A DNA stretch of 9,236 nt from Candidatus Methanoperedens sp. (lineage in GTDB: Archaea; Halobacteriota; Methanosarcinia; Methanosarcinales; Methanoperedenaceae), in assembly GCA_027460535.1 (NCBI GenBank), contig JAPZAR010000037.1:1-9236 (forward strand). The letters run 5' to 3'. How positions within the stretch are numbered: position 1 is the first letter of the stretch; each line of letters begins with the position of its first letter. The notes beneath the pieces were generated by a model. It was not told the DNA's origin and did no database searches. It saw nothing but the letters and a program-made list of their open reading frames with translations. Positions 1,630 to 7,337 of the stretch are shown in pieces. Position numbers and translations under genes: made by a program.

Positions 1630-2217
1630 TCATTTTTTTCCAACACTGAATACTTTAGATGCAAGCAAAACCATAAAAAGAACGACACCAGCTTCGATAC
1701 CAGGCAACTTAACTGCCCCCCTTCTCTGTAAAACCACCGGCTGTGTCTCATTCTTCTCTTGTGAAATTGTATTTGTTGCTTCTGGGATCGCCGGAGTGCC
1801 AACTTTTGGGGGGGCAGTGGAAGTTGCAGTAGTTGTTGTTCTTGATGCTTGAGGCTGTCCCGATCCCGATTGAGTGGATGTTGGCGCAATCTGGCCGGTC
1901 TGAGCGATCATCACGGTCAGGTTCAGTGTTCCCGGCGTAGTGCTCCATTTTATGCTCTGGGCCTTTACATTATTAACATAAAAATCCACCAGACCCTGTC
2001 CGTTTTCAACTTTCATGCCGTAAATCCCTGTTTGTGACAGTACTGTACTGCCTTTGACCTCTTCGCCTATCATTGCTTTGATCACAGTATCTTTTGGCGC
2101 AGGTGCCCCATTGATATAAACGCTGCCGCTCACTACCATCGGAAGCATGGGCACTGCGCTGGCCACCTGTGCAAGGAGAGTTATGCACAATAATATTCTA
2201 TATGTCCACCGCTGCAT
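1630..2217 (-). CDS. Small secreted protein with Thr/Ser-rich linker and C-terminal PGI + hydrophobic + basic tail (PGF-CTERM-like membrane anchor or sorting signal)
   Basis: This is track ORF 1630..2226. I prefer the second ATG (2217), which has AGGA 8 nt upstream; the first ATG has none at usable spacing. N-terminus MQRWTYRILLCITLLAQVASA is signal-peptide-like. The core VSGSVYINGAPAPKDTVIKAMIGEEVKGSTV..GIYGMKV..VDFYVNNVKAQ..GTLNLTV resembles the N-terminal module of the downstream beta-helix protein. The linker is APTSTQSGSGQPQASRTTTTATSTAPPKVGTPAIPEATNT. The C-terminus is LPGIEAGVVLFMVLLASKVFSVGKK. The gene overlaps the upstream gene by about 20 nt, suggesting translational coupling. Confidence 0.7.
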   Translation of the reverse strand: MQRWTYRILLCITLLAQVASAVPMLPMVVSGSVYINGAPAPKDTVIKAMIGEEVKGSTVLSQTGIYGMKVENGQGLVDFYVNNVKAQSIKWSTTPGTLNLTVMIAQTGQIAPTSTQSGSGQPQASRTTTTATSTAPPKVGTPAIPEATNTISQEKNETQPVVLQRRGAVKLPGIEAGVVLFMVLLASKVFSVGKK

Positions 2218-4597
2218 AAGTCGCATCCTGAGTCATGAATATCCAATAGCCTCTACCAGGCTCAAAAACATTAAACTCTTGCAGAGAGGGATTTCCAACG
2301 ATATACATCTTCCAGCCTTCATCAGGCGAATAGGTCAGAAGATGGCTGTATTTTCCATCTATCGAGATTAACGCGCTTTGAACTGGCATATTTCCTGTGG
2401 AAGTATGGCCTATCAGGTTCCATCCTGCTCTCAGGAGCATCGAAGGTGGTACGTTTGGACCTGCCATGTTCTTATACGAGAGTTTCTGGTATGATTGATT
2501 TGAGGCGTTATTGTATACCCAGTAGCCGCGCAGCGGAGTGATCTTGGAAGGATTTTCCCAAGCGTTGGTTGAAGTATTGTAGTACCATTTGATGTTGAAC
2601 GGGTCCAGGCTAAGGTTGGCAAAAGCAACATCAACTGCGGAATTATTCAGCGTCTTTGGCACCGATACGAGATTCCACGTATTTCCAACAAAGTTCAGGG
2701 TATCGAATGGCCGGGGAGGAGGCGGCGGCGTAAGGATTTCGTATGTCACGAAAGGGTAGTATCTCAGATCAGTTGCGCTGTCCGCAACCCTGAACTTCAA
2801 CTCACCCATGATGTCAACAGTTCCATCCTGTGTAAGGTCCACTGATTTATCTTTGTTCTTCAGTACAAGGGTATCGGTACCCGCTGCTACTACTTCCATG
2901 TTGCCAAATACATCAGAACTCTTAACTTCTGTGACTGACGTACCTATTGCCCATGTGTATCTCAGCTGCACCATATCGCTTGTGGCACCAGCAAAAACGC
3001 TGTCCACATATGTTATGAACAATGGAACATCTGTCTCGCCTGCAAAGCTCTTCTCTATGTAAGTATAAACTCCGCCCTGTTGGATTACCTTATCGTCCTT
3101 CTTTACGCCATCCTTGCTCAGAACAAGCCATACCTGTCTCGGCGATGCTTTGGCATCAACGCTCTGGGCTAATAGTGTCCAGCCGTCTCCGATATCCCAG
3201 GTCTCTCCGACCGTCAGTGACTTCTTTTCATTAGTGGCATTGCCCTGCTCGATTATAAGCTTGGCTAATTTTTTAGCATTGGATTTTATCGGTATGTAGG
3301 GCTGCGCCTGCCAGCCTATGATAGGATATTGCCCGGTTCCACTGGCATTGATCTTCAGCATATCAGAATCTGTGGCGTTGAGCTTACCATTTTCGACCAC
3401 TTTCAAAGTCTTGAAAGTTTTGGTCGTTGTGTATATCAAATTTTCATTAGCTCCATCAATGTTTCTATTTTGGACGCTCAAGACCCATAGATTCTCTGTC
3501 TTTAAGTCATTCTTTAAATCGTACCAGAATCCTGCAAAGTTTGAAGCATCCCAATAGCGAGGCGTGGGATCGCTGAGACTGCCTGGTACTGAAATGACCA
3601 AGCCGCGTACCTCATATGTTCCAGGCTGAGTTCTAACTACCATTGGGTAATATCTCAAATCGGTGGCGCTGTCTGCCACTCTGAATTTCAAATCACCCAT
3701 GATGTCAATAGTTCCATCCTGTGTAAGGTCCACTGATTTGTCTTTGTTCTTTAGTACAAGGGTATCGGAACCCGCTGACGTTAACACCATTTTGCCAAAT
3801 ACATCGGAACTCTTAACTTCTGTAACTGAAGTACTTATTGCCCATGTGTATCTCAACTGCACCATATCACCGGTTGAACCCGGGGACACGCTGTCCACAT
3901 ATGTAAGGAACATAGGGACATTTGTCTCATTTGCAAGGCTTTGATTGTAAATATAGATCCCGCCCTGTGCGATGATCTTGTCGCTAACGTTGATACCATC
4001 TTTATTAAGAACGAGCCTTGCCCGCAACGTACTTGCATTGATGCTGGCCGCGGTTAAATTCCAGCCATCCCCGATATCCCATGTTTCTCCCACTTCCAAG
4101 GTTTTCTTTTCAGTTGTCGCATTGCCCTGCTCGATAACAAGCTTGGCTAATTTCTTAGCATTGCCTTTTACCGGAATGTAGGGCTGCGCCTGCCAGCCTA
4201 GGATAGAATATTTTCCGGTTCCACTGGAATTGAACATCATCATATCAGAATCTGTTCCGTTGATCTTACCATTTTCGACCACTTTCAAAGTCTTGAACGT
4301 TTTGGTTGTTGTGTATATCAAATTTTCATTAGCTCCATCAATGTTTCTATTTTGGACGCTAACGACCGAAAGATTCTCTGTCATTAAGTTATTCTTTAAA
4401 TCGTACCAGAATCCTGCAAAGTTTGAAGCATCCCAGTAACGAGGCGTGGTATCGCTGAGACTGCCTGGTACTGAAACGACCGCTCCGCGGATTTCCACGC
4501 TATATGCCTGAATATTCGCACTTGCATGCATTGATGTTAGCATTGCAATAAGAATTGCCGATGCTGCAATGACAGCTATATCCAATTTTTTAATCAT
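2198..4597 (-). CDS. S-layer-family surface protein: signal peptide, two tandem DUF1608 (S-layer family duplication) domains, PPPPPRP linker, and a 169-aa unassigned C-terminal domain with no TM anchor
   Basis: This is track ORF 2198..4612 (804 aa). The first ATG (4612) overlaps a GGAGG box, so the likely start is the second ATG at 4597: MIKKLDIAVIAASAILIAMLTSMHASA, signal-like. The PRYWDASNFAGFWYDLKN...GWQAQPYIP...GETWDIGDGW...MVQLRYTWA...LKFRVADSATDLRYYP block occurs twice and matches my recollection of the Methanosarcina S-layer DUF1608 domain. The C-terminal part (aa 636-804 in track numbering) contains two WNL(V/I)..(R)GYW(V/I) sub-repeats. Confidence 0.9.
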   Translation of the reverse strand: MIKKLDIAVIAASAILIAMLTSMHASANIQAYSVEIRGAVVSVPGSLSDTTPRYWDASNFAGFWYDLKNNLMTENLSVVSVQNRNIDGANENLIYTTTKTFKTLKVVENGKINGTDSDMMMFNSSGTGKYSILGWQAQPYIPVKGNAKKLAKLVIEQGNATTEKKTLEVGETWDIGDGWNLTAASINASTLRARLVLNKDGINVSDKIIAQGGIYIYNQSLANETNVPMFLTYVDSVSPGSTGDMVQLRYTWAISTSVTEVKSSDVFGKMVLTSAGSDTLVLKNKDKSVDLTQDGTIDIMGDLKFRVADSATDLRYYPMVVRTQPGTYEVRGLVISVPGSLSDPTPRYWDASNFAGFWYDLKNDLKTENLWVLSVQNRNIDGANENLIYTTTKTFKTLKVVENGKLNATDSDMLKINASGTGQYPIIGWQAQPYIPIKSNAKKLAKLIIEQGNATNEKKSLTVGETWDIGDGWTLLAQSVDAKASPRQVWLVLSKDGVKKDDKVIQQGGVYTYIEKSFAGETDVPLFITYVDSVFAGATSDMVQLRYTWAIGTSVTEVKSSDVFGNMEVVAAGTDTLVLKNKDKSVDLTQDGTVDIMGELKFRVADSATDLRYYPFVTYEILTPPPPPRPFDTLNFVGNTWNLVSVPKTLNNSAVDVAFANLSLDPFNIKWYYNTSTNAWENPSKITPLRGYWVYNNASNQSYQKLSYKNMAGPNVPPSMLLRAGWNLIGHTSTGNMPVQSALISIDGKYSHLLTYSPDEGWKMYIVGNPSLQEFNVFEPGRGYWIFMTQDATYAAVDI
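2735..3625 (-). repeat. DUF1608 domain copy 2 (intragenic tandem duplication)
   Basis: Track aa ~330-626. A 53-nt perfect match links 3426-3478 to 4308-4360. A 30-nt perfect run agttccatcctgtgtaaggtccactgattt occurs in both copies. Confidence 0.85.
3626..4507 (-). repeat. DUF1608 domain copy 1 (intragenic tandem duplication)
   Basis: Track aa ~36-329 of the 804-codon ORF. Aligns to copy 2 at an offset of 882 nt (N-terminal part) to 891 nt (C-terminal part). Confidence 0.85.
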
Positions 4598-4605
4598 TTT
4601 AATTT

Positions 4606-4610
4606 CCTCC
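4606..4610 (-). promoter_or_regulatory. Shine-Dalgarno GGAGG for the S-layer-family gene
   Basis: Minus-strand sequence is aATGGAGGAAATTAAAATG. GGAGG lies 8 nt upstream of ATG 4597. Confidence 0.6.
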
Positions 4611-4867
4611 ATTCAACCAACTCACCTGCGACTTTGGGCTGCGTGTAGATAAAAAAACTATTAATACTATAATTCCCCATGCTATTCCAGGAACTCTCCA
4701 TATACCATTCTTATTTGAGACCATAATCAAGCCACCTCTTTTCACAAATACCACGTATCCCGAGCGATAAGTCTACAACTCATGCTCGCGGGAACTCCAC
4801 GACCTTATTCAATGAGACATCATCTCACGATAAGGAAATCTCCAAGCTTTTCCGGACGTACTGAGAA

Positions 4868-5054: not shown

Positions 5055-5191
5055 TGACCTGCGCGCCTTTATCTGCCGGTTCGTCGCCTGAAATCTAGCA
5101 CTGTTTGCTCTCCTCTTGTGGATTATACGCTAACGGTTGCATCGGGTTCTATCCCACGCCGCCACTGTAAAAATATGACATTAATGTAACC
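5055..5191. repeat. Degenerate copy (D) of the intergenic repeat module
   Basis: tacgctaacggttgcatcgggttctatcccacgccgccactgtaaaaatatgac aligns with tacgctattggttgcctgggattcctattggcgccgccacagtataaagatatac (7133-7187). It is preceded by gacctgcgcgcctttatctgccggtt (compare gactctgggcgccttcatctgcggtt) and followed by attaatgtaacc (compare attaatgtaatc at 7091). Confidence 0.5.
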
Positions 5192-5195
5192 TAAG

Positions 5196-5589
5196 TTTGA
5201 CAGATGGCAGTCTTCTTAAAAGAGAATATTCTCTTTTAACAACAAATTTTCGATATTTTATCAGGAAAATCTATTTGACAGTTGAAAAAAATTCCCCTAT
5301 TCTTGGCTATTTTTTAGCTTTTTTTCTGGAAATTCCTACAATTCTGAACTAAAATAGGCTTATTATTTGAGTGAAAATAACAAAAATATACCATTCTTGT
5401 TTATTTTTTTCGAAAATCTACAGCAACTGTCAAAAAACAAGTGAAAAATCAAAGAAATCGCATTCAACAAACAGAAATAGAACTGTCAAATTTATGCGTG
5501 AAAAAATGATGAAAAATGCAAAAACTACGTTTTATCGTTGATAATAAAAATTGTAAAATCATTCAGTAATAATTAGAACTGTCAAATTT
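5196..5589. repeat. AT-rich non-coding block with five copies of an AACTGTCAAA-type motif in opposed orientations
   Basis: TTTGACAGat at 5196-5205 and TTTGACAGTT at 5274-5283 have one orientation. AACTGTCAAA at 5425-5434, 5481-5490 and 5577-5586 have the other. The last two share 16 nt (tagaactgtcaaattt at 5478-5493 and 5574-5589). gtgaaaa starts at 5381, 5441 and 5497, giving degenerate 56-96-nt units. Confidence 0.7.
5216..5239. repeat. Perfect 24-bp palindrome ttaaaagagaat|attctcttttaa
   Basis: Read directly from the sequence: 5216-5227 is the reverse complement of 5228-5239. Confidence 0.9.
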
Positions 5590-5591
5590 GG

Positions 5592-5814
5592 GATGTAATC
5601 CAATCTGCGTTTATCGGCGTTATGCCCGCCGCGACGTATAGACACGTATCTCCTCGTATGGGCCATACGTGTGGGCGATGTCAACTGGCGCAACGGTTGA
5701 CGTGGACGCACCCTCCCGAGGCGCGACTCGGGGCGTTCATCTGCGGTTTGTTATTTGCGCTATTGGTTGCCTGGGATTCCTATTGGCGCCACAACTGTTA
5801 AAAAACATACTTTA
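5592..5814. repeat. Repeat module copy A (short-motif site filled by a hairpin element, followed by the ctattggttgcctgggattcctattggcgcc block)
   Basis: gatgtaatccaatctgcgtttatc ... ttcatctgcggtttgttatttgcgctattggttgcctgggattcctattggcgcc..catacttta aligns with 7092-7191, except for the extra 5616-5735 segment. Confidence 0.7.
5616..5735. repeat. 120-nt GC-rich hairpin element inserted in the AATCTGCG-TTxATC-TGCGG motif
   Basis: Flanked by tttatc (5610-5615) and ttcatc (5736-5741). Hairpins are cgtatgg/ccatacg (5655-5669), gtcaac/gttgac (5680-5700) and cccgag-gcgcga-ctcggg (5715-5732). The right half aligns with 6981-7016. Confidence 0.6.
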
Positions 5815-5904
5815 AATAATTAATTCCAATCCTGAACCTATCCCCACCACAGACGCATCTCACCTTACCCACTCATACATCCTCACTCAGAATGCCGCTG
5901 TATG

Positions 5905-6567: not shown

Positions 6568-6627
6568 AGACAGCTAAAATCACTCGGAAAAACAGCAGCG
6601 TTGGCAGTTTCTATGTATTCTTATCCC

Positions 6628-6759
6628 TTACAGCAACCATTGGCCGCAATGCTGCCCCGTGTGCACAAGCGCCTTCCCATGCTCCCCCCACAGTTCCCGG
6701 GAAAGCGGCGCGCACTTGATGAACTGGGGGCGGGCGACCACGATTGAGATGATTTTCAT
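6628..6759 (-). pseudogene. wecB: Decayed 5' fragment (C) of a UDP-GlcNAc 2-epimerase gene
   Basis: My translation: [43 protein letters not shown]. It matches the conserved epimerase N-terminus ([10 protein letters not shown]...HTGQHYD), but with G to V, HYD to HCG and a premature stop. It shares a 33-nt perfect run with fragment B (6704-6736 = 7282-7314). Confidence 0.75.
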
Positions 6760-6910: not shown

Positions 6911-7035
6911 CAAATCTGCGTTCATCATGCCGAAACCCTGCGGGTTCTCGACTCCGCGCACACGCATGGCGCAGCCATGCGTGGACACGCCCTCCAGAGG
7001 CGTGACTCTGGGCGCCTTCATCTGCGGTTTTTTTT
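6911..7035. repeat. Second filled AATCTGCG-TTCATC-TGCGG site (B1) carrying a 90-nt hairpin element (6927-7016) and ending in T8
   Basis: Layout is caaatctgcgTTCATC[atgccgaaaccc...ctctgggcgcc]TTCATCtgcggtttttttt. Hairpins are a perfect 10-bp stem cacgcatggc-gca-gccatgcgtg (6961-6983), ccagag-gcgtga-ctctgg (6994-7011) and cgaaaccc/gggttctcg (6931-6950). Confidence 0.65.
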
Positions 7036-7091
7036 CGTTCCGTAGGTTGTTTCGGCCTTTTACGAAGCGCCGAGACTGTTGAAACAATTAA

Positions 7092-7191
7092 TTAATGTAA
7101 TCAAACCTGCGTCTATCCGCGGTTTTTTAATTTACGCTATTGGTTGCCTGGGATTCCTATTGGCGCCGCCACAGTATAAAGATATACTTTA
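7092..7191. repeat. Repeat module copy B2 (empty version of the short-motif site, followed by the ctattggttgcctgggattcctattggcgcc block), abutting wecB fragment B
   Basis: ttaatgtaatcaaacctgcgTCTATCcgcggttttttaatttacgctattggttgcctgggattcctattggcgccgccacagtataaagatatacttta. It is collinear with copy A but lacks the 120-nt hairpin segment. Confidence 0.7.
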
Positions 7192-7337
7192 TGTATTCTT
7201 ATCCCATGCAGCAATCCATGGTCATAGTGCTGCCCCGTATGCACCAGTATCTCCTCATGTTCCCGTCGCAGTTCGCGTGATAGCGGCGCGCACTTGATGA
7301 ACTGGGGGCGGGCGCCCACGATGGAGATGAGCTTCAT
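7137..7337 (-). pseudogene. wecB: 5' fragment (B) of a UDP-GlcNAc 2-epimerase gene that reads out into the repeat module
   Basis: This is track ORF 7137..7337: [41 protein letters not shown]... Epimerase similarity is clear for about 41 aa (7215-7337). The frame then continues through repeat sequence to a stop at 7137. Confidence 0.8.

Follow-up and report, generated by a model that had tools for sequence, protein, structure and literature searches.

The 9,236-nucleotide stretch analysed here (the window) comprises positions 1 to 9,236 of contig JAPZAR010000037.1 from an assembly of the archaeon Candidatus Methanoperedens sp. (GCA_027460535.1), and it contains four copies of a short repeat unit. 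Sequence comparisons show these sites to be gene-less ('solo') end-repeat modules of cassettes that carry a gene of the GxxExxY (PDDEXK_3) family. The module consists of two to three tandem 10-bp units, (ATCTGCGTTC)n, and ends with CTGCGG-TT; in Methanoperedens it often houses a GC-rich core composed of hairpins. One type-A core, one type-B core, one core-less module and one remnant are present in the window. Our comparisons establish the architecture of the modules, their membership of a dispersed family, the structural conservation of the hairpins, the link to the cassettes and the presence/absence polymorphism of the sites.

GxxExxY cassettes and their end repeats

GTDB was scanned, with one genome per species, for the two half-motifs of the decamer repeat at a spacing of 90-120 nt, which yielded at least 120 loci. 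Among the matches listed, about 20 Methanoperedens-type archaea had the same insert as the window (75-98% identity), and more than 15 bacterial phyla had the heptamer ATCTGCG at 10-bp spacing in tandem or palindromic arrays, in which 8 kb can contain as many as 75 heptamers. Clustering of the open reading frames (ORFs) of the decamer loci revealed one family that recurs across phyla, namely PF13366 PDDEXK_3, which is the same as TIGR04256 'GxxExxY protein'. ORFs of this family with decamers immediately around the gene were found in eight bacterial phyla among the matches listed.

In the intact cassette, the module is present in inverted orientation on both sides of a gene of about 130 codons. 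At the Methanoperedens locus L150, AACCGCAGATAAACGCAGATGAACGCAGAT is located 5' of the GxxExxY gene and its reverse complement follows the stop codon, and at Methanoperedens loci the N-terminus of the protein, MEPQI(T/N)A(N/D)E..., is itself encoded by degenerate decamers. Since these loci had been selected by the motif, the test was repeated on genes picked by protein similarity alone. All five archaeal genes chosen in this manner, one of them from ANME-2 (anaerobic methanotrophic archaea), were preceded by AACCGCAGATAAACGCAGATGAACGCAGAT and followed by an inverted 3' repeat, and three of three bacterial plasmid genes had inverted repeats of their own types (CACGGAT, CGCGGAT and CACAGAG). A second Methanoperedens subfamily of GxxExxY is flanked by ATCCGTG repeats (L189 9700-10400, L150, L239, L024 and L094). 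The distinct repeats of the plasmid genes and of this second subfamily imply that the type of repeat follows the protein subfamily. Three of the four repeat units of the window (5602-5615 plus 5736-5749, 6913-6926 plus 7017-7030, and 7104-7128) have two to three tandem 10-bp units with the heptamer ATCYGYG and end with GG-TT, and the same module lies 3' of all five tested archaeal GxxExxY genes.

The cores are likewise found in cassettes. A complete core is present in the 3' repeat of three intact cassettes (L179, L226 and L234) and a partial core in the 5' repeat of four (L102, L179, L233 and L236). L234 is located on another contig of the metagenome-assembled genome (MAG) to which the window itself belongs, and window positions 5602-5750 match the core of this cassette with 88% identity.

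In the GxxExxY protein, the E, D, (E/D)xK and QxxxY residues of the RecB/Cas4-like PD-(D/E)XK nucleases are conserved, and many transfers of its gene between bacterial and archaeal clades have been described (PMC3424549). No match was obtained in a PDB sequence search, in PADLOC or in PHROGs. An earlier reading of the window from its sequence only had suggested looking for a TnpA-REP/IS200-like transposase; the repeat-flanked gene encodes a PD-(D/E)XK nuclease and is not of this type, although no genome-wide screen for Y1 genes was made.

Several further observations concern the cassettes and their repeats. At five loci the cassettes are wedged between housekeeping or operon genes, and their settings include a position between cobD and pgpA-cobS that two genomes have in common, the interior of restriction-modification clusters, and the gap between moxR and a DUF58 gene. 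The cassette of an ANME-2 archaeon (L238 1500-2130) measures about 470 bp from repeat to repeat, its 5' repeat lies within an annotated coding sequence, and it is followed by a gene-less miniature copy that is preceded by the same 35 nt. In six bacterial loci, including a Spirochaete (COTS27) and a Binatia, there are tandem arrays of 0.3-1 kb composed of 44-54-nt units, each unit consisting of three decamers and a spacer; some of these arrays flank GxxExxY in inverted orientation and some stand alone. The decamer triplet was also observed in seven viral-class contigs of IMG/VR (L243-L249), mostly as gene-less palindromic pairs of three units, a short loop and three inverted units. These seven contigs have no GxxExxY ORF, and the Methanoperedens hairpin core was not found in the viral collection. 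Repeats of a further type, CTTTGCG at 10-bp spacing, occur at three Methanoperedens loci and were not linked to a gene. Lastly, bacterial decamer modules in Scytonema and in a Brocadiaceae genome surround GC-rich, hairpin-prone inserts whose sequence is unrelated to the Methanoperedens core, which suggests that the hosting of inserts may be a general property of the repeat.

The repeat units of the window

The units, named A to D in the order of their positions, are made up of the following features, all on the + strand.

5055..5194 (+): unit A, degenerate and truncated; a remnant of the core 3' end plus the terminal decamer at 5055-5081 (CCTGCGCGCCTTTATCTGCCGGTT, 2 mismatches) and a tail ending with CGCCGCCACTGTAAAAAT; repeat family D5
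5602..5615 (+): unit B, inner decamer part AATCTGCG-TTTATC (AATCTGCGTTTATC)
5616..5735 (+): type-B hairpin-mosaic core of 120 nt, of which the last hairpin module is common with type A
5736..5749 (+): unit B, terminal decamer TTCATCTGCGG-TTT (TTCATCTGCGGTTT)
5750..5815 (+): unit B tail, GCGCTATTGG...TATTGGCGCCACAACTGTTAAAAAA; repeat family D4
6913..6926 (+): unit C, inner decamer part AATCTGCG-TTCATC (AATCTGCGTTCATC); the same 14-mer bounds 85 distinct copies elsewhere
6927..7016 (+): type-A hairpin-mosaic core of 90 nt, GC-rich; nhmmer E = 6e-37 against the family alignment
6932-6949, 6962-6982 and 6994-7011 (+): hairpins H1, H2 (with covariation) and H3 of the type-A core
7017..7030 (+): unit C, terminal decamer TTCATCTGCGG, then TT and a T-run (TTCATCTGCGGTTT), the outer end of the module
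7031..7103 (+): unit C tail, with an imperfect hairpin, GCGCCGAGACTGTTGAAAC and an A/T-rich stretch; repeat family D5
7104..7128 (+): unit D, core-less two-unit decamer module AACCTGCG-TCTATC-CGCGG-T6 (AACCTGCGTCTATCCGCGGTTTTTT)
7129..7195 (+): unit D tail, 85% identical to the unit B tail; repeat families D4 and D5

The sequence-only reading had described an uninterrupted motif as an empty site (unit D, which we read at 7104-7128) and had noted that the same motif is split elsewhere by GC-rich segments of 90 nt (6927-7016) and 120 nt (5616-5735). The sequence reads as claimed, with unit C running AATCTGCG-TTCATC, 90 nt, TTCATC-TGCGG-T8 (6913-7035) and unit B running AATCTGCG-TTTATC, 120 nt, TTCATC-TGCGG-TTT (5602-5750). 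The 3' halves of the two inserts do align, at 85% identity over 54 nt, and their last hairpins differ by a compensatory pair of changes (C>A / G>T). A degenerate copy proposed at 5055-5081 proved to be real as well; it is similar only to the last few bases of the insert and to the terminal repeat unit. In the window, the half-motifs have four and five matches where about 0.45 were expected, and none of 200 shuffles gave as many. Copies of the type-A core with 96-98% identity are present in other Methanoperedens MAGs, and the type-B core is 82% identical to that of L055.

All four units carry a further common tail, GCGCC(N)ACWGT plus an A-rich sequence, that had previously been overlooked. The tail module starts with a T-run and an imperfect hairpin, which are followed by GCGCC(N)ACWGT and then by an A/T stretch that is TATA-like (5750-5815, 7031-7103, 7129-7195 and 5082-5194). 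A regular-expression scan placed the tail motif at most 110 nt from 15 of 268 decamer ends elsewhere, as compared to a background of 0.23%, and a BLAST comparison of the window tail module with the other loci gave no match. The tail may function as a promoter that faces outward, or it may belong to one sub-family as an additional part.

The hairpin-mosaic family in Methanoperedens

A metagenome scan anchored on the first hairpin identified 102 further loci and 106 distinct copies. An insert-only profile, from which the motif had been removed, gave 176 hits, all of them in archaeal or metagenome loci, and no hits in 720 kb of bacterial decamer-bearing loci. Judged by these searches, and among the matches listed, the hairpin-insert family was found only in Methanoperedens-type sequences.

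The inserts are bounded by ATCTGCG-TTYATC on the left and by (T/A)TYATC-TGCGG-TT on the right. Complete copies elsewhere all share these ends in unrelated flanks, and on the left side the information content drops to zero 6 nt before ATCTGCG, on the right side 2-9 nt past CTGCGG. Moreover, filled and unfilled versions of the site occur many times, also within homologous flanks. In view of the consistent boundaries and the many filled and unfilled sites, the earlier hypothesis of a small dispersed element survives on both counts.

The number of hairpin modules per core ranges from 3 to 9 or more, and the resulting mosaics are about 90-270 nt long. There are six or more types of hairpin module, which vary in number and order between the fixed ends and include the following.

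H1: GAAACCC-TGC-GGGTTCTC
H2: ACGTATGCC...GGCATACGT
H3: CCAGAG-GCGTGA-CTCTGG
H4: GTCAAC...GTTGAC; H5 and H6 are further modules

The length classes are 114-119, 125-150, 185-207 and 250-292 nt, and the ends are always identical. Window positions 6927-7016 represent the commonest form (H1-H2-H3), and 5616-5735 a second form that shares H3. The hexamers are separated from the conserved core by 1-3 variable bases.

Compensatory changes in the aligned sequences show that the hairpins are conserved as structures. In an alignment of 38 distinct copies, 99.4% of the cells pair, and H2 contains five pairs in which both sides have changed, covering 30 cells. In 500 shuffles, the observed value was not reached for any of five measures, and the signal was destroyed when the partners were slid. 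The folding z-scores of single copies are weak (-1.3 to -2.0). Rfam 15, searched at a permissive threshold, returned only Leu_leader over the core-less site, with 22 bits as compared to a gathering threshold of 50 (E = 0.48). ARAGORN detected no tRNA or tmRNA in the window, and no conserved promoter was found in the family copies.

Core-less and core-bearing sites

About 60 core-less modules are present in 710 kb of Methanoperedens loci, and most of them have three units, AATCTGCG TTCATCTGCG TTTATCTGCG G-TT. At sites with homologous flanks, the core occupies the place of the middle TGCG of such a three-unit repeat. This was observed for L183 versus L138 and for two paralogues in L203, where more than 100 nt of homologous flank on each side enclose the core in one case and TGCG in the other. 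The left junction of the core is always located after TTYATC, and core-less sites with two units also exist.

The presence of TTCATC on both sides of the insert had suggested a target-site duplication. This suggestion does not hold: of 51 distinct canonical copies, only 11 have the same hexamer on both sides and 40 have two different ones, TTCATC/TTTATC, TTCATC/ATCATC and TTCATC/ATTATC being common pairs. The hexamers belong to neighbouring units of a tandem repeat, and they resemble each other because the motif, (ATCTGCGTTC)n, has a periodicity of 10 bp.

One phosphohexomutase gene contains modules in both forms. About 100 Methanoperedens orthologues are insert-free, two alleles have a 33-nt insert composed of decamers only (EPQMNADERR), and two alleles have decamers plus a core (120 nt). 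All insert lengths are multiples of three, there is no consistent target-site duplication, and the four insert-bearing alleles are scattered over the gene tree. The 33-nt copy within this gene identifies the decamer motif as inserted DNA rather than a host target. The idea of a sequence-specific insertion can be retained only in part: the inserts are always located at one position of one motif, but this motif is itself inserted DNA and not a passive target in the host. The same applies to the proposal of a miniature inverted-repeat transposable element (MITE) or a repeat resembling repetitive extragenic palindromic (REP) sequences. A dispersed, non-coding and hairpin-rich family does exist, but its members are no MITEs in the strict sense, as the solo units lack both terminal inverted repeats and a duplication. 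Indeed, the ends of a solo unit, CAAYAAATCTGCG... and ...CTGCGGTT, are not inverted copies of each other; the sequence-only reading had not found terminal inverted repeats either. Inverted repeats are found only around the whole gene cassette and not around solo units.

Copies within and beside genes

Most copies are intergenic, and their orientation relative to the neighbouring genes is mixed. Start or stop codons are often no more than about 50 nt away from the CTGCGG-TT end, and copies frequently lie 11-53 nt before start codons. In-frame copies are present in two protein genes, namely the mutase of L096 (the 120-nt insert) and the U32 peptidase of L041. The modules in these genes are read on their minus strand, have no stop codon and add about 40 residues (...PQMKAPRVTPLEGVST...RVRGVENPQGFGI...); the peptide APRVTPLEGVST was noted alongside the 120-nt insert of the mutase. 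Apart from these, the 31 matches to the insert peptide were without exception short hypothetical ORFs of Methanoperedens-type origin, which are probably spurious gene calls over intergenic copies.

Possible mechanisms of spread

We consider it probable that the repeat units of the window are solo end-repeat modules of GxxExxY cassettes that are non-autonomous and are copied or converted through recombination at the decamers, with the nuclease acting in trans. The modules would be passengers of the cassette system, and recombination initiated at the decamers would either copy them to new places or switch them between the core-less and the core-bearing form. The required cut would be supplied in trans, most likely by the cognate GxxExxY nuclease, and the process would resemble homing or gene conversion rather than a cut-and-paste reaction with target-site duplication. 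A conversion-like process fits with the replacement of TGCG by the core, with the absence of a duplication and with the occurrence of the same site in either form. The hairpins might act in single-stranded form, for which a DNA intermediate or the 3' end of the cassette transcript, folded as RNA, could be the setting.

Several observations weigh against this interpretation. Nothing in our data points to binding or cutting of the decamers by the nuclease, or to recent movement of any copy. In bacteria, the layout of the decamer arrays around GxxExxY varies. Conserved sequence sometimes extends beyond the repeats, which makes the true ends of the cassette uncertain. The AlphaFold model of GxxExxY, based on a shallow alignment, has a mean predicted local distance difference test score (pLDDT) of 56 and is too poor to be used. 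Neither hmmsearch nor tblastn detected a GxxExxY ORF or fragment in the window, which makes the copies in the window solo modules. The scattered mutase alleles could reflect inter-strain recombination instead of repeated insertion. As for the hairpins, one-sided changes show no more than a weak preference for the + strand, on which they mostly yield G.U pairs, and the two strands of a 292-nt composite are equally stable when folded (z = -7.8 and -7.2), so that folding energy cannot tell the strands apart.

Among the alternatives, it is conceivable, though unlikely, that the module is mainly an RNA element, i.e. a structured 3' end that serves as terminator, stabiliser or processing stem for the transcripts of the cassette and of neighbouring genes, and that its spread is a by-product. 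This would agree with the conservation of the stems by compensatory changes, with the basal CUGCG/UGCGG pairing, which is possible on the + strand only, and with the location of the core just past the stop codon and in sense orientation in four cassettes (L179, L226, L189 and L234). The T-rich end of the module is an archaeal termination signal. Archaeal termination requires just the T-run. The region 7100-7130 folds at -7.4 kcal/mol (z = -2.9), and T-rich sequence follows the modules. However, copies are found in mixed orientation to their neighbours and often precede start codons, those in the two protein genes are in-frame and on the opposite strand, modules are freely gained, lost and duplicated, and neither a conserved promoter nor an Rfam match was found. 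An RNA function would also leave the entry of a 33-nt module into a coding gene unexplained.

We regard it as decidedly unlikely that the core is a single-strand element of the IS200/IS605 type, similar to REP sequences or palindrome-associated transposable elements (PATEs). Here, a Y1 HUH transposase would insert the core 3' of TTYATC, the decamer would be the preferred target and the right hexamer the element's own cleavage site. Such elements would account for the hairpins, for the lack of terminal inverted repeats and of a true duplication, and for a left boundary directly after TTYATC combined with a right end, (T/A)TYATC, that need not match it. In addition, there are two-unit 'empty' sites (window 7104-7128), which simple insertion would explain, and most one-sided changes preserve G.T pairs on one of the strands. 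Yet the alternative allele at homologous flanks is the three-unit repeat, in which the core replaces TGCG, and complete cores were never found outside decamer modules. The variable bases between the hexamers and the conserved core also argue against it. Furthermore, no Y1 gene was seen beside any copy, with no dedicated genome screen made, and the sole recurrent neighbour is GxxExxY.

Very improbable is an origin with no dedicated mobility, in which decamers arise by replication slippage and hairpins by local palindrome formation and both spread by ordinary recombination or duplication of large segments: the unit number does vary (2, 3 or 4), bacteria have long tandem arrays, larger repeats that contain the module exist and the window is a patchwork of duplicated segments, but the same module of about 30 nt and core of about 90 nt recur with 90-98% identity and sharp boundaries in more than 100 unrelated flanks, an identical 33-nt module is present in a conserved gene of two distant lineages, and the heptamer, found in more than 15 phyla, is in every case among the matches listed accompanied by one and the same gene family.

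Other candidates were rejected. An integron attC site, which the toxin-antitoxin cassettes and gene fragments of the window had brought to mind, was dismissed as there are no R''/R' core sites (RYYYAAC ... GTTRRRY) and no integrase is encoded in the window. An archaeal bulge-helix-bulge intron or a C/D-box/K-turn RNA on the minus strand was discarded because the junctions cannot pair on the mRNA-sense strand, where G.U pairs become A.C mismatches, and because both in-gene copies are open in the same frame. The template/variable-repeat pair of a diversity-generating retroelement does not fit with non-coding hairpins. Eight Rhodobacteraceae loci matched in the scan by coincidence, inside one orthologous coding gene.

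Genomic setting of the window

Besides the 3' part of wecB, the window carries genes for a Methanosarcinales-type S-layer protein (PF07752) and for two PIN toxin-antitoxin pairs. The full wecB gene extends from 8525 and runs off the end of the window. All four repeat units are located in a rearranged, mostly non-coding stretch among wecB fragments and toxin-antitoxin pairs. Two copies of a wecB 5' fragment, at 7137-7337(-) and 6611-6759(-), are mutually 82% identical; they correspond to the first 40 or so codons (TIGR00236 positions 1-41, E = 1.9e-6), one of them has an in-frame stop codon, and each adjoins a repeat unit. Breakpoints of segmental duplication in the window thus appear to be marked by the repeat units.

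Contig JAPZAT010000046.1 (GCA_027460495.1) is identical to the window except for an extra 136 nt between window positions 5433 and 5434, which are flanked by AACTGTCAAA. This sequence recurs in the AT-rich stretch at 5200-5600 (26-27% GC, ORF-free; also at L001 3665-3800), where there are about seven copies of AACTGTCAAA(TTT) in both orientations, and it is similar to the end of the tail motif (ACTGTTAAAAA). The S-layer gene at 2198-4612(-) contains two internal repeats of about 890 nt with 84-88% identity (families D1 and D2).

Comparison with known systems

The Methanoperedens modules have most in common with systems of short palindromic repeats. Like REP sequences, the bacterial interspersed mosaic elements (BIMEs) built from them and their associated tyrosine transposases (RAYTs), they combine short interspersed palindromic units in variable, mostly extragenic mosaics with a single small repeat-flanked gene for the presumed mobilising enzyme. 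This gene encodes the PD-(D/E)XK nuclease GxxExxY, whereas RAYT is a Y1 HUH transposase (TnpA-REP). Moreover, the bounding sequence is a 10-bp tandem repeat instead of a GTAG-headed palindrome, the host is an archaeon, and the end repeat encloses the hairpin mosaic, which is not itself the repeat. Rickettsia palindromic elements (RPEs) resemble the modules in their palindromic make-up, in their length of about 100-150 nt and in their ability to occupy unrelated housekeeping genes in-frame and to be read through there as an extra peptide (PMC10969869). In-frame copies of our modules are rare in comparison, with two host genes recognised, the sequences are not related, and RPEs have no tie to a decamer repeat or a nuclease gene.

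With MITEs, the modules share the properties of being multicopy, gene-less and short, of having ends in common with a gene-carrying relative, and of showing internal deletions between conserved ends. They differ in that solo units have neither terminal inverted repeats nor a target-site duplication, and in that the gene-carrying relative, the putatively autonomous GxxExxY cassette, is not a recognised insertion sequence. The archaeal MITEs named in a 2024 review are from Sulfolobus, Halobacterium, Haloquadratum and Desulfurococcus, and no methanotrophic archaea are among those named. The PATEs derived from IS200/IS605 also have hairpin ends, a conserved short sequence at the left junction, and no inverted repeats or duplication; unlike them, the core at homologous flanks replaces TGCG instead of being inserted, and the associated gene is GxxExxY.

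Lastly, free-standing homing endonuclease genes and the 23S rRNA intervening sequences with small ORFs offer a parallel for a tiny selfish nuclease gene that is wedged among housekeeping genes, has inverted flanks and has undergone many inter-phylum transfers (PMC3424549). The GxxExxY cassettes have no known recognition site and no known intron or intein context, and their homing is hypothetical. Their flanks consist of periodic decamers, and decamer type and protein subfamily vary together.

Implications

A limited search of the accessible literature turned up no account of the decamer repeat or its association with GxxExxY, nor any of the hairpin mosaic in Methanoperedens. Queries with the sequence strings returned unrelated primers only, and 'GxxExxY' and 'PF13366' were mentioned only in passing. 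Together, the decamer repeats and the hairpin mosaic look like an undescribed kind of selfish repeat. The hairpin mosaic may be akin to interspersed palindromic mosaic repeats, and the underlying cassette system may represent a new class of mobile elements. Going one step further, we tentatively propose that GxxExxY/PDDEXK_3 genes and their inverted, subfamily-specific 10-bp repeats form an unrecognised class of very small mobile elements (down to about 470 bp) in Bacteria and Archaea, which leave solo and palindromic gene-less derivatives. The Methanoperedens end repeat might then house a second-order parasite or accessory, the hairpin mosaic, which would be copied between modules and even be built into host proteins.

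If this is true, GxxExxY/PDDEXK_3, a very large and widely transferred family that is annotated as "unknown", would acquire a function and a testable DNA substrate, and the 10-bp repeats that litter the intergenic regions of many phyla would be explained. For genome annotation, dozens of spurious "hypothetical proteins" of 40-70 codons per Methanoperedens genome would be flagged. The methane-oxidising archaea would gain a hairpin-mosaic repeat that can remodel their intergenic regions and add peptides of about 40 residues to their enzymes.

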